Under the pieces are notes generated by a model. That model had not been told where the DNA came from and ran no database searches. It worked only from the letters and a program-made list of their open reading frames with translations. DNA of 53,987 bases, taken from an uncultured Actinomycetes bacterium (GTDB lineage Bacteria > Actinomycetota > Geothermincolia > Geothermincolales > RBG-13-55-18). Shown here piece by piece: positions 4,241 to 50,779 of the stretch. A program made the position numbers and the translations under genes. How positions within the stretch are numbered: the first letter of the stretch is position 1; every line of letters starts with the position of its first letter. The stretch covers positions 1 to 53,987 of the forward strand of contig CAKZMC010000160.1 in assembly GCA_937128055.1 (NCBI GenBank), written 5' to 3'.

Positions 4241-5478
4241 GGATGTTCGACTTCATCATGAGCGAGGAGCAGAAGGGGCTGCAGGATGAGGTGCGCGACC
4301 TGGTAAGCTGGGTCCCGCGCCAGCTCATACTGGACATGGACGCCATGATCGCGCCTTTTCCCAGGTTTTTCCTGGAGGAGGCGGGGCGGAGGAAGCTCCT
4401 GGGCCTGCGCTTCCCCGAGCAGTACGGGGGCCGCGGCCTGAAGTGGGAGGACGAGATCATCGCCATCTCCGAGATGTCCCTGGTGGGCGTGCCCCTGACC
4501 TGCCTCTACTCGCTGGTGAGCATCGTGGGAGAGTGCATAGTGCAGTTCGGGAACGAGGACCAAAAGGAGCGCTTCCTGGTCCCCACCCTCAAGGGCAAGA
4601 AGGTGTGCGCGGAGGCGCTCACCGAGCCGCGCGGCGGCTCCGACTTCTTCGGGGCCACCTGCACGGCCCGCCGCGAGGGGGACCACTACGTCCTGCACGG
4701 CCAGAAGCGCTTCATCGTGGGCGCGGAGGGTGCCGATTACTTCATGGTCTACGCGCGCACCGATCCGGACGCCCCTCCCCGCGACGGCCTGAGCTGCTTC
4801 CTGGTGGAGCGGGACGGCAGCGTGGAGGTAAAAACGGTATACGGGCTCATGGGGGCGCGGGGAAGCGGCACCGGCAGGGTACTCTTCCGGGACACCAGGG
4901 TTCCCGCGGAGAACCTGGTGGGAGAGGAAAACGGCGCCTCCCACATCTTCTACCGCATGATGGTTCCCGAGCGCATGACCTCTGCGGCGGGCTGCGTGGG
5001 GGCTGCGCGAGAGGCCATCGATCTCGCCGCCCGCTACACCACGCGGCGCAAGGCCTTCGGGGTGACCATCAAGAACTTCCAGGCGGTGAACTTCATGATT
5101 GCGGAGAGCCTGGTGAAGCTGGACGCCATGGCCAGCCTCATCTGGATGACGGCACGGGCCATCGACGCCGGCATCCCCCACGGCAGGATGCGGCGCATGG
5201 TTTCGGAAGCGAAGAAGTTCGCCACCGAGGCCGTTTGGGACATATGCTACAACGCCATGCAGGCCATGGGGGGCATCGCGTACACCAACGTCTACCCCAT
5301 CGAGAGGATGCTGCGCGACTCCCGCCTTCTCTCCATCTGGACGGGCACCAACCAGATCATGAACCTCATCATCCAGCACGAGTTCTACAAGGAGCTGGAA
5401 GAGCAGGTGAAGGGAAAGAGGGACGTGGAGCTGGACGCCCCGGAGGCCTTCAACGAGGAGGAGAAGATCTACGAGTAG
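4237..5478 (+). CDS. acyl-CoA dehydrogenase
   Basis: ALTEPRGGSD, GQKRFI, FQAV and GGIAY...IWTGTNQI motifs. ATGA overlap with the MerR stop codon. Confidence 0.92.
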   Translation: MRMFDFIMSEEQKGLQDEVRDLVSWVPRQLILDMDAMIAPFPRFFLEEAGRRKLLGLRFPEQYGGRGLKWEDEIIAISEMSLVGVPLTCLYSLVSIVGECIVQFGNEDQKERFLVPTLKGKKVCAEALTEPRGGSDFFGATCTARREGDHYVLHGQKRFIVGAEGADYFMVYARTDPDAPPRDGLSCFLVERDGSVEVKTVYGLMGARGSGTGRVLFRDTRVPAENLVGEENGASHIFYRMMVPERMTSAAGCVGAAREAIDLAARYTTRRKAFGVTIKNFQAVNFMIAESLVKLDAMASLIWMTARAIDAGIPHGRMRRMVSEAKKFATEAVWDICYNAMQAMGGIAYTNVYPIERMLRDSRLLSIWTGTNQIMNLIIQHEFYKELEEQVKGKRDVELDAPEAFNEEEKIYE

Positions 5479-6127
5479 GCGGCTTCCCGGGCGGAACCGC
5501 GGGGCCGGTCGTCCCGCCGCCCGCTTTCGGTGCCCAGGAGGCCAGGATGGGGCGCATGATCACCGACGCCGCCTCCTCACCCCGCGGCAGCAGCCAGTCC
5601 TCCTCGAAGGCAAGCATGTAGGTGAGGAAGAAGAAGATGAGCACCAGGACCCAGGCCAGGTAAGCGGGATCGAGGGAAGGGTCGAGCGTCCCCTCCTTGA
5701 TCCCCGCTTCCACCAGGCTGCGGATATCCCCCGCCCTGTCGGCGAGCAGGCTTTCGATGTTTTCCTGGAATTCGCGGGCCGCCGCCTCCGAAACCGTGTT
5801 CACCACTATGCGCAGCATATCCGGGTTCTCCTCGCAGAAGCGCAGGTGGGCGCGCATGAGCAGGTCGGCGAGTTCCGTGAAATCCCTGGCGGGAGGCAGC
5901 TCCCGCCAGAGGTTCTCCACGATGGCGGTATAGACCTCGTTGCGCACGGCGTAGAAGAGCTCGCGCTTGGAGGGGAAGTGGCGGTAGATGGCCCGCTTGG
6001 TGATACCCGCGGCCCGCGCGATGTCCGCCATGGAGGCCCCGTCGTAGTTCTTGGCGGCGAAGGCCTTGAGGGCGGCCGCGACGATGAGCGGGCGGCGGTT
6101 TCTCCTGGAAGATTTTACCTCAGCCAT
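5450..6127 (-). CDS. TetR/AcrR-family regulator
   Basis: N-terminal HTH ASMADIARAAGITKRAIYRHFPSKREL. Confidence 0.88.
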   Translation of the reverse strand: MAEVKSSRRNRRPLIVAAALKAFAAKNYDGASMADIARAAGITKRAIYRHFPSKRELFYAVRNEVYTAIVENLWRELPPARDFTELADLLMRAHLRFCEENPDMLRIVVNTVSEAAAREFQENIESLLADRAGDIRSLVEAGIKEGTLDPSLDPAYLAWVLVLIFFFLTYMLAFEEDWLLPRGEEAASVIMRPILASWAPKAGGGTTGPAVPPGKPPTRRSSPPR

Positions 6128-6131
6128 CGCG

Positions 6132-6749
6132 TCAGCCCTCGATGCGGCCGGTGGTGGAGATGCTCGAGAGCAACCTGTCCACCAGGTCCAGGTAGGTGCG
6201 CTTGTCGTTAAAGGGGACCTCCAGGCCCAGCGCGTTGGCGATATAGACGATCTCCATGAGGGCGACGAAGCTCCAGGCGAATTCCATGGCGTTCACGTCG
6301 TCTGTCGCCTCACCCCGCCGCTGCGCCTCCTCGATCATGTAGGAAACCGCCGCGTAGAGGTGGTGCAGGCGGTCCACGGGGGTGCGGTGGAAGCCGCCGC
6401 GGCCGAGCTCCGGTATGGAGTAATAATATGCCCGCATCTTGCTGCGGTGACGCCTGGTGAAGTCGAAGGCCGCCTCCGCGGCCTCGCGCAAGCCCGCCAG
6501 TGGGTTGCTTTGCTTCAGGACGCGCATGACCACGTAGCGGGAAAGCTCCTTGACGGTGCGGTGCCGGAGGCATTCCACCAGGTCCCGCTTGTCCTCGAAG
6601 TGCTGGTAGAGGATGGGCTCGGTGATGCCCGCCTCGGCGGCGATGTCCGCCGTGGTGCATGAGTAGTACCCGCGCCGCGCCAGGCAACGTTCCGCCGCCT
6701 TCAAGATGCTCTCCCTGCGCTTCTCCGCCGGCAGCCTCTTCCTGGCCAT
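6132..6749 (-). CDS. TetR/AcrR-family regulator
   Basis: HTH TTADIAAEAGITEPILYQHFEDKRDL. Confidence 0.9.
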   Translation of the reverse strand: MARKRLPAEKRRESILKAAERCLARRGYYSCTTADIAAEAGITEPILYQHFEDKRDLVECLRHRTVKELSRYVVMRVLKQSNPLAGLREAAEAAFDFTRRHRSKMRAYYYSIPELGRGGFHRTPVDRLHHLYAAVSYMIEEAQRRGEATDDVNAMEFAWSFVALMEIVYIANALGLEVPFNDKRTYLDLVDRLLSSISTTGRIEG

Positions 6750-21886: not shown

Positions 21887-21961
21887 GGGCGTTTAGCTCA
21901 GCGGGAGAGCGCCTGCCTTACAAGCAGGAGGTCGTGGGTTCAAATCCCGCAACGCCCACCA
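21887..21961 (+). tRNA. tRNA-Val (anticodon TAC)
   Basis: Cloverleaf: acceptor GGGCGTT/AACGCCC, anticodon arm CCTGC-CTTACAA-GCAGG, T loop TTCAAAT, encoded CCA. Confidence 0.97.
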
Positions 21962-22150: not shown

Positions 22151-23385
22151 GTGCTGGGAAAAATTTGCAGTCAATGCGGCGCGGAATCAGCATCCAGGAA
22201 TATTTCTGCCCACGATGCGGTACCACCTTGTTCGCCGACGATACGGCGGAGTCGCCGATAAAAGGCCCGCCCACCGCCGCCATGGGGGCCCCCGGGCGGC
22301 ATCCGGCGGGGGGTCAGCAAGGCATGCCAGGAGGGGCGCCCGGGGGCATCGCGGCAAGCTCCCAGAACGCCAGCACCTTCCGCCATGAGGGATAGGGCAC
22401 CTATAGCGTTGTATGGACAGGGTTTCCCGGCACGCAGCGCCAAGCTGTTTCCGGCACGGGCATGGGCGTTTCCGTGAGCAGGGAGCAACTGCGGCGCATG
22501 ATCGAGGAGGACAGGCGAAGGAGGAAGAAGATCCTGCTCATTTCCATTCCCGCCGCTTTATCCGTCTGTGCCGTCGTCTTTTTACTGCTTTTCTTCCTCG
22601 TTTTCCACAAAGGCATGAGTCCGGAGGGGTACAAGAAGGAAGCCCTGAGGGTCCACGATAGCGTCATCACCAAGCTCCAGGCTATCGAGAACGGCTGGAA
22701 CCGGAGCGATTACAGCGACAAGCCCTACAGCTGGTGGTACGACAAGCTACGCGACGAGTTCAACGAAGTCGCCTCGGTGATCAGCCAGGCGCTTGAGGAA
22801 TTGCAGAGACTGCGACCTCCCGAGCAATGCGCGTCGCTGGCTGAGGAGGCGCTTTCATACTACGAAGAGGCAGCCGATTACGCTGCCCGCGCGGTACCGG
22901 TCTTCACGTTCGCGGGGGATTGGGCGCGCATATGGGAAGGATGGGTGGATACCCCCTTCGTATCGGATGGCATGAGGGAGGACATGACTCCTGCGGATGC
23001 CGTTTCCCTCATCGACCAGGATATCGCCTGTATCGACCAGGTGACCAAGAGCTTCCAGGAGCTAAGTGCACCCGTGGAATGCAGCAACATGCTAAACGGT
23101 GTATTATCCCTCATCCAGGAACAGAGGACGCTTTTCGAGCGCCTGAAGAGGCCGATCATCAATTACGACGTGGACGCCTTTGAGGTCCTGTGCGCGGACT
23201 GAGACCATTTCGACAACACCGCTGTGGAGAGAATTGTAAAATTATGGGAAGACATGGATTCTTTTCACGACGAGTACCTGGGGCTTCTCGACAAGGGATA
23301 CGATATCCTGGCTATGCTCAAAGGCTTGCAGATGGAGTTGGAAGACGAGAGCGTGGAAGGAACCACCGCTTTCCTGGCGCCGTGA
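22151..23385 (+). pseudogene. decayed zinc-ribbon / single-TM membrane protein gene
   Basis: A 1-nt deletion near 22186 splits CSQCG from FCPRCG. In-frame TAG at 22393 and in-frame TGA at 23200; the frame continues to TGA at 23385. Confidence 0.75.
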
Positions 23386-23474
23386 CCTGAGATGCCGGTA
23401 ATGCAAGCGGGGCGGCTCGGGAATACGCGGTTTCCCTTCATCGCCCGCCGCGCTTTTTTGCTGCATTTGACAGG

Positions 23475-23545
23475 GGGCATGCGACCCAGCGGGTGAGCGC
23501 CTACCTTACAGGCAAGAGGTCATGGGTTCAAATCCCTTAAGGCCC
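23475..23545 (+). pseudogene. degenerate near-full-length copy of tRNA-Val(TAC) lacking its CCA end
   Basis: Colinear with 21887-21957 (CAGCGGG, GAGCGCCT, CCTTACA, GAGGTC, TGGGTTCAAATCCC); diverges at TTAA 23537-23540. Confidence 0.85.
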
Positions 23546-23630
23546 TTGGAAGACCTATCCCCACTTATCGTCCTGGGGGAGGCGGTATGAAAAAGGGCCA
23601 CGGTGGCCCCATGTTATTGGTGGGCGCTAA
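23537..23630 (-). repeat. ~93-bp tRNA-3'-end-derived repeat unit
   Basis: Reverse complement matches 29633-29726 at 91/94 nt; bounded by TTAA and CTAA cores. Confidence 0.92.
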
Positions 23631-23664
23631 AGGATTTGAACCCATGACTTCCTGCTTGTAAGGC
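23618..23664 (-). repeat. inverted 3' half of tRNA-Val (att-like fragment from anticodon to CCA)
   Basis: Reverse complement reads GCCTTACAAGCAGGAAGTCATGGGTTCAAATCCTTTAGCGCCCACCA. Confidence 0.9.
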
Positions 23665-23694
23665 CTATCCAGATTAGAAACCAAGGATTGCGGC

Positions 23695-24360
23695 TCAGGA
23701 GAAGAGGCCCTCGCGGAAGGCTTTTAGTGCATAGTCGCGGTCGTTTTCAACCAACCCTCGAATGGCCCGCGATGCTTCCTCAGCGTCTCTGCCCGTGAAC
23801 GCGTCCATGGCCTCCTGGAAAAACTTGAGATTTTCCAGGAGGTTTTCTTTCTGCATGATCAGAGCGGCGTATTCAATTCGTGCGGTAATAGGCCATAGAT
23901 ACAGCACCACGTCCTCCAGGATCTTGTTCTTACTGGATCTGCAAGAATGGTAAGCGACCTGAAAGGAGCCCTCGAGGTAGCCCTCGAGATCACCCGTTCT
24001 GGCGCTCTCACGGAGCTTCTCCAGCGCCTTTTCTATGTTCAGGAAGCTTCCCTCGTCTTGATTCTCCACCCCCCTGAAAGCAACCAGGCCGAGGATCTCC
24101 TTCAGCACGTCCGCAAGCCAGATTATTGTTTCCTCCGTTATCTCGGACACTCTCGCTCCGCGGCGCGGCGTAAGCTCCACCAGCTTCTGCTTTTCCAAGA
24201 TGCGAAGCGCCTCTCGCAAAGGTGAACGGCTCACGCCGAGCTCGTCAGCAAGTCTCGTCTCGACGATCTTCTGGCCCGGCTTCATCTCCAGGCTGATGAT
24301 CCTCTGACTGAGATAGGCCGCTATCTGCTCGGGAAGGTTTTCCGATGGTTTGAAGGGCAT
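23695..24360 (-). CDS. GntR-family regulator (FCD domain)
   Basis: PGQKIVETRLADELGVSRSPLREAL HTH with a C-terminal FCD-like helical domain; divergent from the GRE gene. Confidence 0.92.
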   Translation of the reverse strand: MPFKPSENLPEQIAAYLSQRIISLEMKPGQKIVETRLADELGVSRSPLREALRILEKQKLVELTPRRGARVSEITEETIIWLADVLKEILGLVAFRGVENQDEGSFLNIEKALEKLRESARTGDLEGYLEGSFQVAYHSCRSSKNKILEDVVLYLWPITARIEYAALIMQKENLLENLKFFQEAMDAFTGRDAEEASRAIRGLVENDRDYALKAFREGLFS

Positions 24361-24544
24361 ATCTGGCTCCCCGGGAATACACAGCCGCCGTTTGCCTGTT
24401 CCGAAAACGTGGTCCTTATCATCATGTAAGGATTTTACTTTATTGCAGGCGAATGCGGAACGTAACCATGCTGCGCATGCTCTTTCAGGCGGGAAGCGTC
24501 TGTTGCTTGGCAGAGAATCTTATTGATGATTATTGATGAAGAGC

Positions 24545-24583
24545 TTGACATAGCATACAGTATACAATATACAATATGATACA
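24545..24583 (+). promoter_or_regulatory. GRE promoter with GntR-type ATACA operator repeats
   Basis: TTGACA at 24545, followed by ATACA at 24555, 24562, 24569 and 24579 overlapping the -10 region. Confidence 0.6.
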
Positions 24584-24794
24584 AAGGAATCTATGAGCCT
24601 GAATCGATCGATGGTCGCTATTCGCGAAGTAGTTGGGCGGATTCATGCGCCATTTTAGGGCTGTTCCTGCGGCTCTAGCTGCGACGTGGCGGTGGCTTTC
24701 TGGTCGACACAGGAACGGAGGAAGCGAAAACACGTGAAGATTTTTCGGATTTCAGCATATCGGTCGGCGTTGTTCTCCAGAGGGGAAGGGGGAG

Positions 24795-27473
24795 GTGTCT
24801 CGCATGGGCGTCGCTGTTAAGCAATTGAACGCATCCCGCATCACCAAGGCAGTCCAGATAAAGGACGCCGAGCGGCCTTCGGTGAGCATGCCGGTCGAAG
24901 TCAAGCTTGATCCCAACGTCAGGATCTGCACAGAGCGCGCTGAGCTCGTTACTGAATCCTACCGCATGACGGAAGGGGAACCCTGGGTGATCAGGAGGGC
25001 GAAAGCGCTCGACCACCTCCTGCGCAACATGACCATCTACATACTGGAGGGCGAGCAGATAGTGGGCAATTACGCCAGTACCCCGGATAGCCTGCCTACC
25101 TACCCGGAGATATCATGCCGCTGGCTGGATGAGGAACTCGAGGGCGCTTTCAGGGAAAACATCGATGAAGCGGGCAGGGCGAGGCTGCGAGAGATTCATT
25201 CCTTCTGGTACGAGCGGAACGTCGAGGGCAGGATACTGGCCACCTTGCCCGATGACCTCAGAGTTTTTATCGAGAAGAGCAAGTCCACGGCCATGTTCAC
25301 CATCTTCTGGCCTTTGGGGTGCTTCACCCTCGATCTCAGGCATTGGGTTTTCCCCAGGGGGCTGCGCGGTATCGTCGAGGAGATAGGCAGGCTGCGCGGG
25401 GAGCTGCGTGCGGATGATCCGGAATACGGTGAGAAGAAGGATTTCTACGACGCCGCCGAGATATGCTGCGAGGCGGCGATTGCTTTCGCGCGGCGCTACG
25501 CGGAACTGGCTCGTAAGAAAGCGGCCTCCGCACGAGGAAAGGTCAGGGAAGATTGCCTCAGGGTAGCAGAAGTATGTTCGCGCGTGCCCGAGAACCCGCC
25601 CCGGACCTTCCACGAGGCGCTGCAGGCGGTTTTCTTCTGCCACCTGATCAGCGCGCAGATAGACTGGTACAGCGTGGGCCTAGGCCAGCGTTTAGACCAG
25701 CTTCTCTGGCCGTATTACGAAGCCGATAAGGAAGCCGGGAATATCGACTACGACCGCGCCGTGGAGCTGCTCGAGTTCCTCTGGATCAAGCTGGACGATC
25801 TGGGACAGATAAACCCCGTGACCACCTCTATCTACCAGGCGGGTGGCACGAAGTTCCAGAACATCTCGATCGGCGGGGTGGATGAGCACGGCAACGACGC
25901 CTCCAACGAGCTTTCCCTGGCAGTTTTGGACGCGACCATCGATGTACGTACGCCCCAGCCGTCCATATGCCTGCTCTTCCACGAGAAAATGGACCCGAGG
26001 CTTCTGGATAAGGCCATAGAATGCATTGCAACAGGCCAGGGACAGCCTGCCATATTCAACAACGACGTCTGCGTGAAATGGCACCTGGACAAGGCGCTGG
26101 AGATACTGTACCCGGAGTCGGGGGTCCATATCGGCGTGCCGTGTCTCGGTCTGGTGCAGAAAGCGGATCGGGTTGTGAGGAGGATGATAGCGCGGCTGCC
26201 GAGGCGCGTTCGCCAGCGAATCGAGTTATCCATAGACGAATGGCCCAATGCGGTGTACACGGGCGGGGGCGCCGTCGGGGATGCGTTGCGCAAGGTCGCA
26301 AAGAAAACGGGTTTCTGGGACGCCGAGAAAGGGATGGCGATAGCTCGCGGCTGGGCTCCGACCGCTTGCGTCGGAGGCGGACTGCAGGGCAGAGTGACCA
26401 TCCAGGGGACCCTTACTTCGATCCTCATCTTCACGGTCCTCGATTTCGTCAAATGCTTCGAGTACGTGATGTACCAGGGCGTCGAGCCGGAGACCGGTGA
26501 GCTGGTGGGGGCGCCCACGCCCGACCCCCGTACTTTTAAGACCTACGAGGAATTCCTCGAGGCTTTCATGCGGCAGATCGAGTTCCAGGTAGACCGGGCC
26601 AACCGCGCCTACCAGGTTGCGGAGAAGATTTACGAAGAACAGATGCCGCGACCATTCGCCTCGGCCTGCACGGAGACCTGCGTGAGGCGCGGTAGGGACG
26701 GAATGAGGAAGGGCGATGCGTCCATAAGCGAGATCTTCAGCATGGGCAGCGTGAACGCTGCCGAATGCCTCGCAGCGGTGAAGAGACTGGTTTTCGAGGA
26801 AAAATCCGTCACCATGGACGAACTGATCGCCGCCTGCGCGGCCAACTGGGAAGGTTACGAGGACCTGCACCGCAAGTGCCTGGAGGTGCCGAAGTTCGGC
26901 AACGACGACGATTACGTGGACGGCATCCTGGCAGAATTCTACCGCAAGGCACAGGCAGTGGTGCATTCCCACAGGGACCACTGGGGAAACGGCCTGCAGT
27001 TGGAGTCATCGCTCGCGGCCGGATATTATGTGGGCGGCCTCGTCTGCGGCGCTACCCCGGATGGTCGGGTCAAGGGAGAGACGGTCTCCGACGGACAGCT
27101 CTCTCCCATGCACGGGCGCGACGTGAAAGGACCTACGGCGGTACTGAAATCCTGCTCCAAGGTCGATCCTCACAAGACCTGGAACCAGTTATGCAACCAA
27201 AAGATAAACCCCGCCTTCCTCAAGGGCGAGAATCGCAAGCTCTTTGCCGATTACCTGCGCACCTGGCTGAAGTTCGGCAACTGGCACGTACAGTTCAACT
27301 GCCAGAGCGCCGAGGAGCTCAGGGATGCCGTGGCGCACCCTGAAAGGCACAAGGACCTGATCGTGCGGGTGGCCGGGTACAGCGCATATTTCATTGACCT
27401 GGCTCCAGGTCTGCAGCAGGATATCATCGCCCGCACGGAACAGGACCTGAGCGAGTTCGCCAGCAGAGCGTAA
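24795..27473 (+). CDS. glycyl radical enzyme of unknown function
   Basis: C-terminal HVQFN...LIVRVAGYSAYF glycyl motif, FGNDDDYVD, TPDGR; single active-site Cys in ACVG. Confidence 0.93.
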   Translation: MSRMGVAVKQLNASRITKAVQIKDAERPSVSMPVEVKLDPNVRICTERAELVTESYRMTEGEPWVIRRAKALDHLLRNMTIYILEGEQIVGNYASTPDSLPTYPEISCRWLDEELEGAFRENIDEAGRARLREIHSFWYERNVEGRILATLPDDLRVFIEKSKSTAMFTIFWPLGCFTLDLRHWVFPRGLRGIVEEIGRLRGELRADDPEYGEKKDFYDAAEICCEAAIAFARRYAELARKKAASARGKVREDCLRVAEVCSRVPENPPRTFHEALQAVFFCHLISAQIDWYSVGLGQRLDQLLWPYYEADKEAGNIDYDRAVELLEFLWIKLDDLGQINPVTTSIYQAGGTKFQNISIGGVDEHGNDASNELSLAVLDATIDVRTPQPSICLLFHEKMDPRLLDKAIECIATGQGQPAIFNNDVCVKWHLDKALEILYPESGVHIGVPCLGLVQKADRVVRRMIARLPRRVRQRIELSIDEWPNAVYTGGGAVGDALRKVAKKTGFWDAEKGMAIARGWAPTACVGGGLQGRVTIQGTLTSILIFTVLDFVKCFEYVMYQGVEPETGELVGAPTPDPRTFKTYEEFLEAFMRQIEFQVDRANRAYQVAEKIYEEQMPRPFASACTETCVRRGRDGMRKGDASISEIFSMGSVNAAECLAAVKRLVFEEKSVTMDELIAACAANWEGYEDLHRKCLEVPKFGNDDDYVDGILAEFYRKAQAVVHSHRDHWGNGLQLESSLAAGYYVGGLVCGATPDGRVKGETVSDGQLSPMHGRDVKGPTAVLKSCSKVDPHKTWNQLCNQKINPAFLKGENRKLFADYLRTWLKFGNWHVQFNCQSAEELRDAVAHPERHKDLIVRVAGYSAYFIDLAPGLQQDIIARTEQDLSEFASRA

Positions 27474-27613
27474 TCGGAAGACAGCCTTTCTCCAGCTGCT
27501 TGATGGCAGGGGAAAGGCGTGAGATGACCGCGCTGGGGAAAATGGGCTGGAGACGCAATAACAGTTTTAAGGGCTTAAGCGGGAGGTCCGGTCGTCGTGG
27601 CGGTGACGACGTT

Positions 27614-28546
27614 GTGGAGGGCCTGGTCTTCAACATCCAGAAATTCAGCATCCATGATGGCCCCGGCATCAGGACTACCGTCTTCCTCAAGGGATGTCCC
27701 CTGCGCTGCCCCTGGTGCTCCAACCCCGAATCCATCAACCCCTTTCCAGAGGTGCTCGCCAAGTTCGAAAACCTCTGCCTGGATTGCGGCAGGTGCAACG
27801 AGGTCTGCCCTCGCGAAGCCATCGTGGTCACCAAGAAGGATCGTGCCGACGTCGACGACGGCGGGCACATGCGCTCAATAGACCGTGATCTCTGCGAGCG
27901 GTGCATGAAATGCGTCGAGGTATGTCCCAGCGGCGCGTTGAGCAAGGTGGGCGAGGTAAGAACGGTGGGCGAGATAATGGGCCTGGTGGAGCAAGACCGC
28001 CTCTTCTATGAGACCAGCGGCGGAGGCATAACCCTATCGGGGGGAGAACCGCTGTTGCAGCCGCACTTCACCCTTGCGCTATTACGGGAAGCGAAGAGGA
28101 GAAGCATCCACACCGCCGTGGACACCAGCGGCCACGCCCCCCGTGAGGTGCTGGAAGGCGTTCTGCCGTATGTGGACCTGGTGCTCTTTGACATCAAGCA
28201 CGCCGACCCGGTGATCCATCGCGATACCGTGGGGGTGGATAACCTGCTGATATTTAACAACCTTGAATATCTTTCTGGTAAGACGAGAATATGGATCCGC
28301 GTGCCTCTTATACCGGGTTTCAACGACGATAAGGCGGGAATCTGTGCGATAGCGGAAAAGATACGTCGCTTGTGTTTCGATAAGCTGTGCATTCTGCCAT
28401 ATCACAACTGGGGGAGCGGAAAGTACGCCGCTTTAGGGAGAAGTTATCCTCTGAGCGAAAAAGATGAGACCAATCCCGCCTGCCCCTGCCTGGCGCAGGC
28501 GCTTTTCAGGGCGGCGGGCGTGCAGGATTGCGAAATCGTGCGATGA
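27614..28546 (+). CDS. glycyl-radical activating enzyme (radical SAM with ferredoxin insert)
   Basis: HDGPGIRTTVFLKGCPLRCPWCSNPES, two CxxCxxCxxxC clusters, SGGEPL. The start could be upstream (ORF track 27500). Confidence 0.93.
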   Translation: MEGLVFNIQKFSIHDGPGIRTTVFLKGCPLRCPWCSNPESINPFPEVLAKFENLCLDCGRCNEVCPREAIVVTKKDRADVDDGGHMRSIDRDLCERCMKCVEVCPSGALSKVGEVRTVGEIMGLVEQDRLFYETSGGGITLSGGEPLLQPHFTLALLREAKRRSIHTAVDTSGHAPREVLEGVLPYVDLVLFDIKHADPVIHRDTVGVDNLLIFNNLEYLSGKTRIWIRVPLIPGFNDDKAGICAIAEKIRRLCFDKLCILPYHNWGSGKYAALGRSYPLSEKDETNPACPCLAQALFRAAGVQDCEIVR

Positions 28547-28636
28547 TGGTGGGGGCCAGGATCTGGCTGCCACTCGAACGGAGTCGGAGTGCGTTAAACT
28601 CGTCTTCAACAGTTACATTTTGAGATTACCAGGTAA

Positions 28637-28697
28637 GGTGGCGTCAAGGGATTTGGAAGGCCTGTCCCCACTTGTCGTCCTCGCTTGGCAGTGATGG
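28637..28697 (-). repeat. partial, diverged copy of the repeat unit (cassette junction)
   Basis: Reverse complement contains GGACGACAAGTGGGGACAGGCCTTCCAAATCCC-TTGA-CGCCACC. Confidence 0.8.
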
Positions 28698-28727
28698 TTA
28701 TGCTGAATACGCGAGGAAGTCGATTTT

Positions 28728-29120
28728 TCAGTCCGAAGCGTGTGTCTCGAAAAAGGCAACTGCTTCTTCCTTGGATATATCCCCCGCTGCAACCCCGAGG
28801 CAAAGCCGTTTTAGTTCCTCATTCGACGCCTCGAGCTGCACGCCGTTGATGTTCAAGAATATCTCGGCGGCTACAACCGCCGTACGCTTGTTGCCGTCAA
28901 GAAATGGGTGGTTCTTGCAGATATGAAAGAGGTACGCCGCGGCCATGGCGGGAAGGCTCTTATGAAGGAACTCACCTGCTAAGGCAGCAGTCGGCATCGC
29001 CACCGCACTTTCGAGCATTCCACGGTCTGCGATGCCCTCGGCCCCGCCGAACTCGGCTATCATGCGTGCGTGGATCTTCAGTATGTCTTCGAACGAGAGG
29101 AATACGGGTTCCACGCTCAC
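28728..29120 (-). CDS. doc: Doc-family (Fic) toxin
   Basis: HPFLDGNKRTA Doc-type motif; 130 aa; overlaps the antitoxin stop codon. Confidence 0.92.
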   Translation of the reverse strand: MSVEPVFLSFEDILKIHARMIAEFGGAEGIADRGMLESAVAMPTAALAGEFLHKSLPAMAAAYLFHICKNHPFLDGNKRTAVVAAEIFLNINGVQLEASNEELKRLCLGVAAGDISKEEAVAFFETHASD

Positions 29121-29350
29121 GAATCAGCCAGTTCCTTGAGCACCTTCCCGCGCTCCCCCACGATTCGGTCCAGGTGACGCTCGAGCTCCTCCGGGTCCAC
29201 CCGCCGAGGGCTCACGGGAGTGATGATTATCGACCCGTTGCTCACCGTCAACTGGACTTCCTTGCCCTCTTCAAGCCCGACCATCTCCATGATCGGCAGA
29301 TCCAGTATGAGGGCGTTGCTGTTTCCCACTTTCTGCAGTCTCTTTATCAT
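29117..29350 (-). CDS. AbrB/MazE/SpoVT-type antitoxin
   Basis: KRLQKVGNSNALIL swapped-hairpin motif; C-terminal LKELA; upstream of doc. Confidence 0.9.
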   Translation of the reverse strand: MIKRLQKVGNSNALILDLPIMEMVGLEEGKEVQLTVSNGSIIITPVSPRRVDPEELERHLDRIVGERGKVLKELADS

Positions 29351-29365
29351 TGTGCCGACTCCTTT

Positions 29366-29388
29366 ATGTTATAACATAATTATAACAT
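29366..29388 (-). promoter_or_regulatory. putative TA autoregulatory operator
   Basis: Perfect palindrome ATGTTATAACAT at 29366-29377 plus an adjacent TTATAACAT copy, just upstream of the antitoxin. Confidence 0.6.
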
Positions 29389-29543
29389 CATTTGATCCCA
29401 AGTCAATCCCGCGCAGCAAGACAAGAATCGCAGCCCCTTATAGGGCATGACCGCAGAAGCTGCTGGTTGGCGCCGGCAGACAGATCAAGCCGAGGCAGCA
29501 TTAAGCGAGGCATGGAGTCCGGCTTCTATTGCTCTGGTGGGCG

Positions 29544-29814
29544 TTAAGGCCTCTGGAAGACCTATTCCAGTTTATCCTACTGGGGGAGGCGGTATGAAAA
29601 AGAGCCGCAGGCGCCCCAAAAATTGGTGGGCGTTAACGCCCACCAATAACATGGGGCCACCGTGGCCCTTTTTCATACCGCCTCCCCCAGGACGATAAGT
29701 GGGGACAGGTCTTCCAAGCGCCTTAACGCCTGCCAATCACCAGGGCCCCTGCGGCCTCCATCACAACGCCTCATCCAGGACGACAAGTGGGGATAGGCCT
29801 CCCCGGGGCCTTAG
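29544..29814. repeat. three adjacent ~93-bp units (one inverted, two direct) joined at TTAA cores
   Basis: Cores TTAA 29544, TTAA 29633, TTAA 29723 and TTAG 29811. A 26-bp perfect palindrome at 29622-29647 marks the head-to-head junction. Confidence 0.92.
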
Positions 29815-30100
29815 CGCACGCGGAGGCATAAAGGCTGAGAGCACCCGCCTCTCCGTGCTAGGACCGGCGAAGTAGCGCCGCGGCCTTGATCGCCGGCGGC
29901 GGGCGGCGGTGAGGCCGACATGCCGCGTGCCGGCCAGCACCGGCACGGTGTAACCGGCCCGATAGCGCGGCAGGGCCGTGAAACGGGCATCCCGCCGCTT
30001 GCCCCTCGCCACCCTCAAAAAGCCCGGTCAAGGAGGCGGAAAAACATCCCCCTTAAAAGGGCTTCGCGCTTGCGTTCTGAGGATTTGCGGGAAACATGCC

Positions 30101-30129
30101 TTGATATATAAGCACGAAGGGGTTATATT
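30101..30129 (+). promoter_or_regulatory. sigma70-type promoter of the RRM gene
   Basis: TTGATA, 17-bp spacer, TATATT. Confidence 0.55.
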
Positions 30130-48381: not shown

Positions 48382-49515
48382 ATGGATGTGCAAGCCACCG
48401 TCGAGGAATGCCTGGAGTTATGGCGGAACCCCTATCCGCAGCTGGCGCGCCTGCGCGAGGAAGGGGAGAGGCCGGTGGCGTTCTTCTGCTCCTACACGCC
48501 GGAAGAGATATTGCATGCGGCCGGCCTGACCCCCGTGCGCCTCATGGGGGCGGTGCGCACCATCACCCACGCCGATGCCCACCTGCAGCCCTACTGCTGC
48601 TCGCTTGCCCGCACCGACCTTGATATGGCCTTGGCGGGAGAGCTGGGTTTCCTGGAGGGGGAGGTGTTCGTGCAGACCTGCGACACCATGATGCGCCTCT
48701 CGGATATCTGGCGACGCAACGCGGGACTTTCCTTCCACGGCGACCTGGTGCTCCCTATTCGCATGGGGGAAGAGATATCCCTGCCCTTCATCGTCGAGGA
48801 GGTACGCCGCTTCCGGAAGCAGGTGGAGTCGTTCATCGGGCGAGAGATATGGGACGACGCCATAGAGGAGAGCATGCACGTCTACAACCGCAACCGGCGC
48901 CTGGCGGAAAGGCTCTACGGGCTGCGGCGCGAGAACCCGGGCATCCTGGACGGGCTCTCGGCCACCGCCTGCCTGGTGGCCGGGTTCTGGATGCGCAGGG
49001 ATAAGCACAACGAGCTGCTGCACGAGCTGGTTGAGGAGCTGGGGAAAGGAAGAATATCCCAGGAGGAGAGGGTGCCCCTGCTGGTGAGCGGCAGCGTTTG
49101 CACCATGCCGGACCTGCCGGAACTCCTGCTCGAGCTGGGGGCGGACATGGTGGACGACGATCTCTGCTGCGGTCACCGCTACTTCGACGCCTTCGCCGAC
49201 GAGTCCGTCTCCCCCGAGGAGGCCCTGGCGAAACGCATGTGGGAGCGGGTCAACTGCCCTGCCAAGCACCAGTGCATAGAGGACCGCGCCGAACGCCTCA
49301 TGCGGCAAGTGGGCGACTGCGGCGCCAAGGGGGTGGTTTTCTACCTGCAGTCCTTCTGCGAGCCGCACCTCTTCGACATCCCTTACCTGCGGGGGCGGCT
49401 GCAGGAGGAGCTCGGGGTGCCCTCGCTGGTGCTGGAAAGCGAATTGCAGTCCTTCTCGCGGGGGCAGTTGCGCACCCGCCTGCAGGCCTTCATCGAGACC
49501 ATAAGAGGAGTTTAG
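48382..49515 (+). CDS. 2-hydroxyacyl-CoA dehydratase / benzoyl-CoA reductase family subunit
   Basis: CSYTPEEI, TCDTM, DDLCCG, FCEPH and RTRLQAF motifs. Confidence 0.88.
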   Translation: MDVQATVEECLELWRNPYPQLARLREEGERPVAFFCSYTPEEILHAAGLTPVRLMGAVRTITHADAHLQPYCCSLARTDLDMALAGELGFLEGEVFVQTCDTMMRLSDIWRRNAGLSFHGDLVLPIRMGEEISLPFIVEEVRRFRKQVESFIGREIWDDAIEESMHVYNRNRRLAERLYGLRRENPGILDGLSATACLVAGFWMRRDKHNELLHELVEELGKGRISQEERVPLLVSGSVCTMPDLPELLLELGADMVDDDLCCGHRYFDAFADESVSPEEALAKRMWERVNCPAKHQCIEDRAERLMRQVGDCGAKGVVFYLQSFCEPHLFDIPYLRGRLQEELGVPSLVLESELQSFSRGQLRTRLQAFIETIRGV

Positions 49516-49525
49516 GGGGTTCACG

Positions 49526-50779
49526 ATGAGCAGCGATGGAAACGCGGACGCCAGGGCGGCGGACAAGGAACGGAGGCGCATCAAATCCACCGAGGCCATG
49601 CGGGACCTCATGGTCAAATACTACACGGAGGCCAAGGCGGCGGAGGGCACGGATAAGCATATCGCCTGGATCACCAGCGGCGCGCCCGTGGAGCCCCTCA
49701 TCGCCTTCGACGTCATCCCCGTCTACCCGGAGAACCACGGGGCCATGTGCGGTGCCGCCCATATGAACGTGGAGCTGTGCGAGGCGGCGGAGGCGCGAGG
49801 CTTCTCGCGCGACCTCTGCTCCTACGCCCGCGGGGACATCGGGAGCGCCCTCACCAAAGGGGGGCCCATCGGGGGGCTGCCCCGCCCCACCTTCCTGATC
49901 GCCTGCAACAACATCTGCAACACCGTTTTCAAATGGTACGAGGAACTCTCGCGCTTCTTCGGGGTGCCCCTCTTCATCTACGACACTCCCTTCGTGCGCG
50001 GGGAGCTGCCCGCGCACATCGCCGACTACTCCCTCCGGCAGATGAAGGAATACATTTCCTTCCTGGAAAAAACAACCAATAAGGAATACGATGAGCAGCA
50101 CTTCGTCGAGGTGGCCGCGAAATCACTCTTCGCCTCCGGGCTGTGGGCGGAGGTGCTGGCCTGCAACCAGCACCGGCCCGCGCCCATGACCTGTTTCGAC
50201 GCCTTCATCATGATGGCCCCCATCGTCACCCTGCGCGGCACGCAGGAGGTGGTCGATTTTTACCAGGGATTGCTCGCCGAGATGCGGGAACGCGTGGAGC
50301 AGGGCATCGGCATACTGCCCTCGGAGAGGTACCGCGTGCTCTGGGACAACATCCCCGTCTGGTACGAGCTGCGCAACCTGGGGAGGCTCTTCCTGGAGCT
50401 GGAGACCTGCCTGGTGGCGGACACCTACACCAGCGCCTGGACCTTCGAAGACGTGGACCCGTCCGACCCCCTGGGCAGCATGTCCAAGATCTACGCCGAG
50501 GTTTACCTGAACATAAACCTGGAGCGCATGGCGGACAAGATAGAATCGCTGGCTGCCCGCTTCGACGTCGACGGCATGATCATGCACTCCAACCGGAGCT
50601 GCAAGCCCTACTCCCTGGGCCAGTACGACCTGGCCAAGGAGTTCACGCGCCGCACCGGCAAGCCGACCCTCGTCATCGAGGCCGACCACACCGACTCGCG
50701 CTGGTACAACCGCGCCGAGGTGGAAACCCGCATCCGCGACTTCGTGGAGAACCTCCTGGGAGGCGGCGTCGGCCTTTGA
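49526..50779 (+). CDS. 2-hydroxyacyl-CoA dehydratase / benzoyl-CoA reductase family subunit
   Basis: YPENH, DLCSYAR, NNICNT..KW, NRSCK and IEADHTD motifs. Confidence 0.9.
   Translation: MSSDGNADARAADKERRRIKSTEAMRDLMVKYYTEAKAAEGTDKHIAWITSGAPVEPLIAFDVIPVYPENHGAMCGAAHMNVELCEAAEARGFSRDLCSYARGDIGSALTKGGPIGGLPRPTFLIACNNICNTVFKWYEELSRFFGVPLFIYDTPFVRGELPAHIADYSLRQMKEYISFLEKTTNKEYDEQHFVEVAAKSLFASGLWAEVLACNQHRPAPMTCFDAFIMMAPIVTLRGTQEVVDFYQGLLAEMRERVEQGIGILPSERYRVLWDNIPVWYELRNLGRLFLELETCLVADTYTSAWTFEDVDPSDPLGSMSKIYAEVYLNINLERMADKIESLAARFDVDGMIMHSNRSCKPYSLGQYDLAKEFTRRTGKPTLVIEADHTDSRWYNRAEVETRIRDFVENLLGGGVGL

Follow-up and report, generated by a model that had tools for sequence, protein, structure and literature searches.

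We analysed a stretch of 53,987 nucleotides (contig CAKZMC010000160.1, assembly GCA_937128055.1), hereafter called the window, from an uncultured Actinomycetes bacterium of the order Geothermincolales. In it, a gene for a glycyl radical enzyme (GRE) is flanked by a divergent GntR/FCD regulator gene and a radical SAM activase gene, close to a tRNA-Val gene, a series of att-like repeats and a toxin-antitoxin pair (Table 1). In GREs, which are sensitive to oxygen, the activase installs a radical on a Gly residue, here Gly861, which in turn generates a thiyl radical on a Cys residue, here Cys525. An earlier note on this DNA, made from the letters alone, had described the enzyme as atypical, with an intact glycyl loop (RVAGY) but an unusual Cys loop (ACVGGG); both loops, the Cys codon at 26367 and the positions of the GRE and of the activase were all confirmed.

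Table 1. Features of the GRE locus (positions in the window).
Feature	Position	Strand	Remarks
tRNA-Val(TAC), probable integration target	21887..21961	+	ARAGORN; syntenic in G028, G032, G033
Degenerate copy of tRNA-Val positions 13-71, 86% identical	23487..23545	+	
Left arm of 94-nt, 97% inverted repeat	23537..23630		att-like unit
tRNA-Val 3' fragment, 47 nt, 87%	23618..23664	-	left boundary of GntR-GRE-activase module
GntR/FCD regulator	23695..24360	-	divergent from GRE; Pfam GntR; TIGR03338 best, below cut-off
GRE open reading frame	24795..27473	+	892 aa; 889 aa from likely start ATG 24804, favoured by ribosome-binding site
Lys353, candidate carboxylate ligand	25851..25853	+	24/24 family rows; on beta3, aligns with HypD Asp339
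Family-specific basic helical insert, residues 436-509	26100..26321	+	between helices preceding the Cys loop
GRE Cys loop C525-V-G-G-G	26367..26381	+	Cys codon TGC; wider loop T-A-C-V-G-G-G
Leu540, at BSS Arg508 position	26412..26414	+	by alignment; Arg508 role from PMC11194802, PMC13298812
Glu646, candidate relocated acid/base	26730..26732	+	on beta7, 21/24 family rows; at BSS Trp613 position
Glycyl radical site Gly861	27375..27377	+	RVAGY motif
Radical SAM GRE activase, two ferredoxin motifs	27500..28546	+	likely start ATG 27524
Activase basic N-terminal extension, 34 residues	27524-27625	+	from likely start ATG 27524
att-like core plus arm	28640..28683		right boundary of GRE module
Doc/Fic-family toxin of toxin-antitoxin pair	28728..29120	-	
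Probable antitoxin, 77 aa, upstream of toxin	29117..29350	-	phrog_4324; role suggested by position
Three further att-like units	29535..29813		include, at 29633-29726, the right arm of the 94-nt inverted repeat

The GRE matches the Pfam PFL-like and Gly_radical families (PF01228 at 96.7 bits), and Cys525, on the Cys loop of the 10-stranded barrel, pairs gap-free in alignments with the catalytic Cys of HpzG (Cys435), BSS (Cys493) and MASS. Two residues after this Cys (C+2), Gly527 occupies in the alignment the position of the eliminase Glu, the residue of the CxE motif of GRE 1,2-eliminases/isomerases as defined in PMC13450708. The AlphaFold model (pLDDT 89, pTM 0.91) matches solved PFL2-type GREs with Z scores of 37-47 and favours no single class. 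The top VIA structure match is BSS (4pkf; Z 46.9, rmsd 2.2, 794 aligned residues), and other matches are to diol dehydratase (Z 45.7), glycerol dehydratase (44.4), other BSS chains (39.2), AAD (38.5) and HPAD (37.7), AAD ranking 11th by sequence and 31st by structure.

None of the cut-offs of the 12 NCBIfam models matched was reached: the best score among the HypD, CutC, HpsG, HpfG and PflD equivalogs was 479 bits against a cut-off of 1100, and the GRE also fell below the cut-offs of the PFL2-3 subfamily (522 vs 678 bits) and of the decarboxylases HPAD (316 vs 1150 bits) and IAD (405 vs 1100 bits). The pyruvate formate-lyase model TIGR01255 scored 78 bits against a cut-off of 994, and the paired Cys of that enzyme is absent, the motif being A/S-C-V in 24/24 family rows (defined below). 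As a whole, the protein matched HypD best (402.6 bits) and the family profile matched glycerol dehydratase best (553 bits). The N-terminal half and the family profile are closest to glycerol and diol dehydratases, whereas the C-terminal half scored 221 bits with BSS, 214.5 with HypD and 203 with MASS. Identity to the X-succinate synthases (XSS) is 27-30%, and to BSS 30%.

The GRE is under purifying selection. The ratio of nonsynonymous to synonymous substitution rates (dN/dS) of its core is 0.08-0.12 against three orthologues, with saturated dS, and that of its insert is 0.12 and 0.22, the third value being undefined. Moreover, the reading frames of the module are intact in metagenome locus L008, a second assembly that is 99.4% identical. 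Very probably, the GRE is an active enzyme outside all the characterised classes tested.

The boundary of the family to which it belongs is sharp. Among the 120 best matches listed, 25 (one of them the window's own protein) scored at least 1014 bits at 52-99% identity and the next one 666 bits; the 24 other family clusters are 52-81% identical to the GRE, after which identity drops to about 40%. A search of representatives at 50% identity reproduced the same score gap. Members with a name come from Smithella sp. SDB, Desulfosudaceae and Nitrospirae, among others, while most carry none. We then compared the Cys loops of 24 family rows (the window protein and P0004-P0027, minus the truncated P0011) with those of the 95 next matches and of 139 of 148 new representatives, those shorter than 700 aa being dropped. 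Glu at C+2 occurs in 0/24 family rows, 2/95 next relatives and 71/139 new representatives, and Gly in 21/24, 1/95 and 2/139, respectively. From these counts, C-V-G (in full C-V-G-[GP]-G) is the signature of the family, whereas loss of the Glu is the rule among its near relatives, 93 of these 95 uncharacterised proteins being without it. The Glu-less loop that had led the earlier note to call the enzyme atypical is thus real, but its rarity was overstated.

In a tree built with FastTree from 130 sequences over 762 columns (arbitrary YbiW root), the 20 family rows used form one clade with support 1.0 and a long stem. This clade is nested in a Glu-less radiation (support 1.0), which is sister (1.0) to a grade holding BSS-like proteins; the BSS label of these rows comes from the names of their sources and from P0217, which matches BSS at 755 bits. 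Three HPAD orthologues are placed elsewhere, in another clade with IAD-like proteins. IQ-TREE recovered the same branching pattern from 40 of these 130 rows, without support values. In these trees, which hold no PhdB, AAD or MASS sequences, the family falls outside the BSS-like clade and is therefore not nested in the XSS. Overall, the GRE is a member of a distinct, uncharacterised subfamily, one branch of a large Glu-less radiation. This agrees with the uncharacterised GRE class proposed in the earlier note: the family is monophyletic, has a long stem and reaches no NCBIfam cut-off. The phylogeny that the note had suggested as a check separates it from the characterised GREs included in the trees, and the enzyme is without the pocket residues mapped in eliminases, in BSS and in HPAD. 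A kinship to the fumarate-adding branch, suggested in the same note, is borne out by the C-terminal half, which is closest to BSS, and by the sister position of the radiation; the arylacetate-decarboxylase part of that kinship fails for HPAD, and AAD, absent from the tree, scores no better than the eliminases. According to a 2026 review, entire GRE clades lack validation (PMC13450708), and our literature search, largely without subscription journals or supplements, turned up no publication on this clade, nor any on a GRE bound to membranes. Two observations concern GRE diversity at large. In the distant representatives P0143, P0168, P0173, P0219, P0264, P0265 and P0268, Ala or Thr seems to stand in the column of the radical Gly, which resembles aminoacyl radical enzymes, and the Oscillospiraceae genome G051 has a very large GRE expansion, with 28 PFL-like matches, mostly in frames of 700-780 aa.

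Pocket residues were assigned by sequence alignment. In BSS, Arg508 is described as binding one fumarate carboxylate and the Cys-loop backbone the other, while Trp613 and Asn615 contact the fumarate face (PMC11194802, PMC13298812). Arg508, Trp613, Asn615 and Gln707 correspond to Leu540, Glu646, Phe648 and Ser739 of the GRE; across the family rows, the Arg508 position is Leu in 23/24 and Met in 1/24, and the Gln707 position is Ser or Thr. The glycerol dehydratase pocket residues His164, His281, Glu435 and Tyr640 align with Cys176, Val294, Gly527 and Ser739, and likewise, in an approximate alignment, Asp447 with Ile545. HPAD Glu505 and Glu637 fall on Gly527 and Phe648, and the essential Gln484 of PhdB falls on a Gly, Gln at C+2 occurring in 0/24 family rows.

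What the family has in the pocket instead is a set of conserved charged and polar residues. Neither Lys353, at the position of a HypD residue reported as essential in the active site (PMC7077986), nor Glu646 is among the four commonest residues at its position in the 95 next relatives. Glu737 is probably not family-specific: it occurs in 24/24 family rows, and an acid is found there in 89/95 relatives and in HypD. Further polar residues, Gln288, Gln298 and Gln348, are conserved in the family, and Trp520 and the Gly at C+4 match BSS. In CxE enzymes, the Cys-loop backbone amides are described as holding the carboxylate of the loop Glu, or water (PMC13232127), and both BSS and PhdB function without a loop Glu at C+2 (PMC7079210). 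The earlier note had concluded on a non-Glu chemistry; this does not follow, given the conserved Glu646 on beta7.

The large insertion announced in that note is real. Between positions 432 and 512 the GRE has 81 residues, compared with 4-5 in 95/95 of the nearest non-family relatives, and 21/24 family rows have 81-92. In the AlphaFold model, the region forms five helices. It is less conserved than the rest (mean pairwise identity 35% vs 63% for the core), with several positions near-invariant, and its net charge is +1 to +12 in 21/21. By a HeliQuest-type lipid-binding score, the best 18-residue window of the insert exceeds all control windows, taken at the same length from the same protein, in 11/21 members. 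A profile of the insert run against longer proteins gave 18 matches among 7,994 scored, all of them family members, which is weak evidence that the insert may be unique to the family. Folded alone (pLDDT 63), it gave no usable fold match among 48,161 chains (best Z 4.3); in the ESM Atlas it gave PFL-like leads below 0.9 alone, and the whole protein gave generic GRE clusters.

Several ideas about the insert were discarded. Its hydrophobic moment had seemed extreme against single windows, but that test was biased and was replaced by the matched control. Kinship to the N-terminal extension of a neighbouring HGD-D subunit was rejected at a probability of 1.4%, and a role as an encapsulation peptide was rejected as there are no bacterial microcompartment (BMC) genes. 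Three members, P0021, P0026 and P0017, are without most of the insert, and two of these three carry Arg537, Gln646, Tyr648 and Gln650, a residue switch that suggests a different substrate.

The activase passes the general model TIGR02494 (346 bits vs a cut-off of 174), the sole model passed among those shown, and carries two 4Fe-4S ferredoxin motifs. With starts picked heuristically, 7/9 family activases have an N-terminal extension of 25-34 residues with a charge of +2 to +7, and a Trp lies within the extension in 7/9 family activases vs 1/23 controls; among these 23 control activases, many of them close kin, the median extension is 13 residues and one reaches +2. A GntR orthologue, 51% identical, adjoins the family GREs of genome G005, and GntR-like open reading frames (ORFs), judged by resemblance, occur in 5 of the 10 metagenome family loci examined besides L008 (L009-L018, mostly short contigs). 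Orthologues in G022, G023 and G026 stand away from family GREs and offered no ligand clue in the ORFs read. Within 23300-29500, no ORF of 35-130 aa with an ATG start and a CxxC motif was found, except a spurious 38-aa match; this search for a small Cys-rich subunit covered the locus only, distant copies in the genome not being searched for. BMC shell genes (PF00936) are absent from both the window's genome (G000, 99% complete) and G005 (94%). The earlier note had thus rightly reported a locus with neither small subunit nor BMC genes; its GntR-GRE-activase composition is also correct, but represents only the stripped form, since other loci have tandem GREs with one activase.

The module lies on an island. 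G028, of the same genus, has both flanks in synteny with ~0.6 kb between them, against 6.7 kb in the window (23415-30126). This segment has 57% GC compared with 64% for the genome, and GC at third codon positions is 0.69-0.77 in it vs 0.83-0.87 in two flanking genes. The att-like unit of the left arm (23537-23630) is made up of a tRNA 3'-end core, an arm of ~38 bp and a terminator-like hairpin. The tRNA-Val 3' fragment at 23618-23664 and the repeat copy at 28640-28683 form direct repeats (minus strand) around GntR-GRE-activase, and the next unit holds the Doc pair. The tRNA-Val 3' end with its ~38-bp arm has five copies in the window, two on contig C124 and 12 among loci of G028, G033 and G035. 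No integrase was found in the 56 flanking ORFs scanned, and PF00589 matches occur only on C167 and C177, serine recombinases not having been searched genome-wide. We read the locus as a non-autonomous tRNA island array, and lateral acquisition of the GRE by this genome is very likely. The mobilised cargo of the earlier note is in line with the empty site in G028 and with the att-like repeats.

A reading of the repeats as integron attC sites or single-strand hairpins was dropped: 23530-23640 has no folding advantage over shuffled sequences on either strand (z about -0.8), and the good folding of two right-hand repeat windows (z -4.4 and -2.8) was attributed to a head-to-head palindrome. Around this array we made some further observations. 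The repeats often come as ~89-bp tandem units near tRNA-Val (window 23487-29813; C124:807-935; L092-L096, L098), and in relatives they bracket Fic/Doc, ParE-RHH and AbiEi modules, a Fic_N protein, an amidohydrolase and a glycosyltransferase, with no integrase in the ORFs scanned, so that these repeat-bounded loci look like a cassette-style island array. The gene to the right of tRNA-Val (22462-23385) stops after 246 codons and appears broken or shortened in the window, its 78% identical homologue in G028 having 416 aa. In G033, a group II intron reverse transcriptase directly follows tRNA-Val(CAC) (L094:2722-4128).

The family is present in 2/51 genomes of the host class. In G005, three tandem family GREs (57%, 76% and 56% identical to the window GRE) share one activase and sit among four acyl-CoA dehydrogenase (ACAD) genes, four HGD-D subunits and a BadF-type activator. 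The G005 block from tRNA-His to the activase, which includes one HGD-D subunit and one ACAD pair, is absent from the congener G004, which holds ~6 kb of unrelated DNA in place of the GRE block. In the metagenome, tandem paralogues (near duplicates) occur in 2/10 family loci; overall, the tandem paralogues of the family are 55-58% identical and come in two or three copies with one activase. A gene for an enoyl-CoA hydratase, a MaoC-type dehydratase or an HpaB-fold protein adjoins the family GRE in 3/10 metagenome loci, L015 and L016 having no such neighbour. Homologues of the ACADs (46-77%) and of the HGD-D subunits (51-59%) of G005 are encoded on other contigs of the window's genome. Among 14 sister-clade loci, in which 60 of 108 candidate ORFs were scanned, we found enoyl-CoA hydratases in five, paired carboxyltransferases in three, CoA ligases in three and a methylmalonyl-CoA mutase in one. 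A link of the GRE to the ACAD/HGD-D pathway is suggestive only. A search of genome contigs with the window GRE alone gave one distant locus from 29 pattern matches and no family member, and a plasmid search with the GRE gave 56 records, all below 60% identity.

The HGD-D system itself is a near-core cluster in the class (44/51 genomes), with N-terminally extended HGD-D subunits, a BadF-type activator, an ACAD pair and a protein of 428-534 aa without Pfam match (G000 contigs C58, C110 and C111; L075-L076). The window's genome has 15 HGD-D matches, and one HGD-D pair lies in the window at 48382-50779, ~20 kb from the GRE and outside the island. Contig C110 encodes a GRE of another kind, with a normal CxE loop (L109:16577-18106), upstream of a CoA transferase, an ACAD and an ACAD/HGD-D cluster; thus two GRE types adjoin that pathway. 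In L015, a 585-aa radical SAM protein (4846-6600) lies between the family GRE and the activase, and another GRE is found ~8 kb away.

The reading that we prefer, with a probability of roughly 0.3, is that of a membrane-associated radical entry enzyme, which would bind a lipophilic acid through the Cys-loop pocket and Lys353 and use Glu646 for C-O or C-N cleavage. Since this pocket holds the Glu carboxylate in CxE enzymes and a fumarate carboxylate in BSS, the Gly at C+2 could free it for a substrate carboxylate, aided by Lys353. Glu646 would then act as the acid/base in place of the loop Glu, and in the resulting elimination or ring-opening the Cys525 thiyl radical would break a C-O (or C-N) bond of a lipophilic carboxylic acid. 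The positively charged insert and activase extension may bind an anionic surface, most simply the membrane; as both are basic, a shared anionic surface fits better than mutual binding, and membrane association of the GRE is therefore our preferred, if tentative, reading. The GntR/FCD protein might sense the acid substrate, and the product could enter acyl-CoA oxidation, where ACAD and HGD-D-type enzymes, which are common in the host class, would process it.

A number of points weigh against this reading. Acyl-CoA genes are neighbours in only 4/11 family loci (the 10 metagenome contigs and G005), and there is none inside the window's own module or in L015 (14.8 kb read); the HGD-D system, present in 44/51 class genomes, is so near to ubiquitous that its adjacency to GREs can be chance. 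Three of the 24 family members are without most of the insert (18-20 residues there), and 2/9 family activases are without the long basic extension. The hydrophobic moment of the insert is ordinary, as a median of 23% of control windows equal or exceed it, and the insert is located on the face where GREs form tetramers, as described in PMC13232127, so that it may govern the oligomer state instead. Moreover, Glu646 is replaced by Gln or Asn in 3/24 family rows, and the pocket assignments come from sequence alignments, not from model coordinates.

It is from the insert and the paralogues that a soluble enzyme could be argued, one in which the insert reshapes the face used for tetramer formation, or helps paralogues to assemble with each other or with the activase, and the substrate is small and polar or CoA-linked. 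The tandem copies served by a single activase, the polar residues Gln288, Gln298, Gln348 and Lys353, and the three members without most of the insert would all suit it, and we regard it as a serious if somewhat doubtful alternative: the window GRE is a lone copy with a complete insert and can hence do without a paralogue partner, the shared basic charge of insert and activase extension speaks against mutual binding, and neither G000 nor G005 has BMC shell genes. That the module is a decaying or non-functional passenger of the tRNA island, kept by the linked toxin-antitoxin pair, is very improbable. The island location, the lower GC, the linked Doc toxin and a module without acyl-CoA genes would fit, but the frames are full-length and open, here and in L008, the Gly, Cys and activase motifs are intact, and dN/dS against the three orthologues, albeit with saturated dS, is low (0.08-0.12).

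Two further alternatives keep the enzyme active and change its reaction. In an XSS-like enzyme, the thiyl radical would activate a hydrocarbon or alkyl C-H bond and add the product to an unsaturated acid, the insert replacing the small subunits; the acceptor might be a monocarboxylic acid, or fumarate held by Lys353 in place of Arg508. The affinities to BSS (a C-terminal half that scores best against it, Trp520 and a Gly at C+4, a radiation in sister position, 4pkf as top VIA match) point this way, as do hosts such as Smithella sp. SDB and Desulfosudaceae and the sister-clade loci with CoA ligases (3/14), paired carboxyltransferases (3/14) and one methylmalonyl-CoA mutase. We nevertheless consider it rather unlikely, with the BSS residues changed (Arg508 to Leu in 23/24, Trp613 to Glu, Asn615 to Phe, Gln707 to Ser/Thr), an acid at the fumarate face that speaks against fumarate, no small subunits in the locus, only 30% identity to BSS, other BSS chains (Z 39.2) ranking under several eliminases, and an N-terminal half and family profile closest to glycerol and diol dehydratases. 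It should be noted that distant GRE homologues are often called alkane- or toluene-activating by similarity alone (e.g. PMC8163825). A decarboxylase like PhdB or AAD, removing CO2 from an aryl-, alkyl- or terpenoid acid at the Glu-free Cys loop, is equally hard to favour. PhdB does have Gln and not Glu at C+2 (PMC7079210), AAD and IAD are described as needing no small subunit (PMC13450708; PMC6181972), and a carboxylate-binding Lys with a beta7 Glu recalls the second Glu of HPAD. However, HPAD Glu637 aligns with Phe648 and not with Glu646, Gly527 cannot do the work of PhdB's essential Gln484, the trees (without PhdB and AAD) put HPAD orthologues together with IAD-like proteins in another clade, and AAD ranks low (11th by sequence, 31st by structure); with beta-oxidation genes nearby, an entry step would also make more sense than a hydrocarbon end product.

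Extending the membrane-associated reading, we can picture a monotopic GRE class, in which enzyme and activase are tethered by basic helices, a Lys/Glu pair replaces the loop Glu, and a chemistry not yet described acts on lipids or long-chain substrates, the whole having spread as a three-gene cassette among syntrophs and sediment anaerobes into resident acyl-CoA pathways; this wider picture is speculative and doubtful. Sediment and digester anaerobes encode many GREs without an assigned reaction, and the family offers a compact test case, with one catalytic subunit, one activase, one regulator and few invariant pocket residues. If the insert anchors the GRE to membranes, lipid-like substrates would come within reach of GRE chemistry, which could then provide an entry step that is missing from the anaerobic breakdown of hydrophobic organic matter; if not, the family is one more unassigned GRE clade among many.

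Set beside known systems, the island resembles tRNA-integrated islands in its direct tRNA 3'-end repeats, lower GC, toxin-antitoxin cargo and empty site in a congener, but differs in having no integrase in the window or the flanking ORFs scanned and in its several tandem ~89-bp units, the array being part-inverted. With the XSS/GRE hydroalkylases (BSS alpha, 4pkc/4pkf; MASS MasD, 9o8u), the enzyme shares the GRE barrel, the absence of Glu at C+2, the Trp before the Cys loop and the Gly at C+4; unlike them, it has no small subunits and no C-M-[SA]-P-G loop, and carries the ~77-residue insert. The eliminases and isomerases (1r8w, 5i2a, HypD 6vxc, HpzG 8iof, CutC, IslA, YbiW, PflD) likewise have a single catalytic subunit and a ferredoxin-type activase, whereas their CxE Glu is found in 0/24 family rows and HypD Asp339 is replaced by Lys353. 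Among the GRE decarboxylases (HPAD 2y8n, IAD, PhdB, AAD 7e7l), the loop Glu is absent from PhdB as well, IAD and AAD have no small subunits either, and HPAD also uses a Glu on strand beta7, although the positions of its loop Glu and beta7 Glu2 are Gly527 and Phe648 here. The closest relatives, at about 35-47% identity, are the Glu-less GREs of sediment anaerobes (Dehalococcoidia, Deltaproteobacteria, Lokiarchaeia, Baldrarchaeia, Thermodesulfobacteriota), from which the family is set apart by its insert (0/95 in these relatives) and its Gly at C+2 (1/95), and with which it shares the acid at position 737 (89/95).

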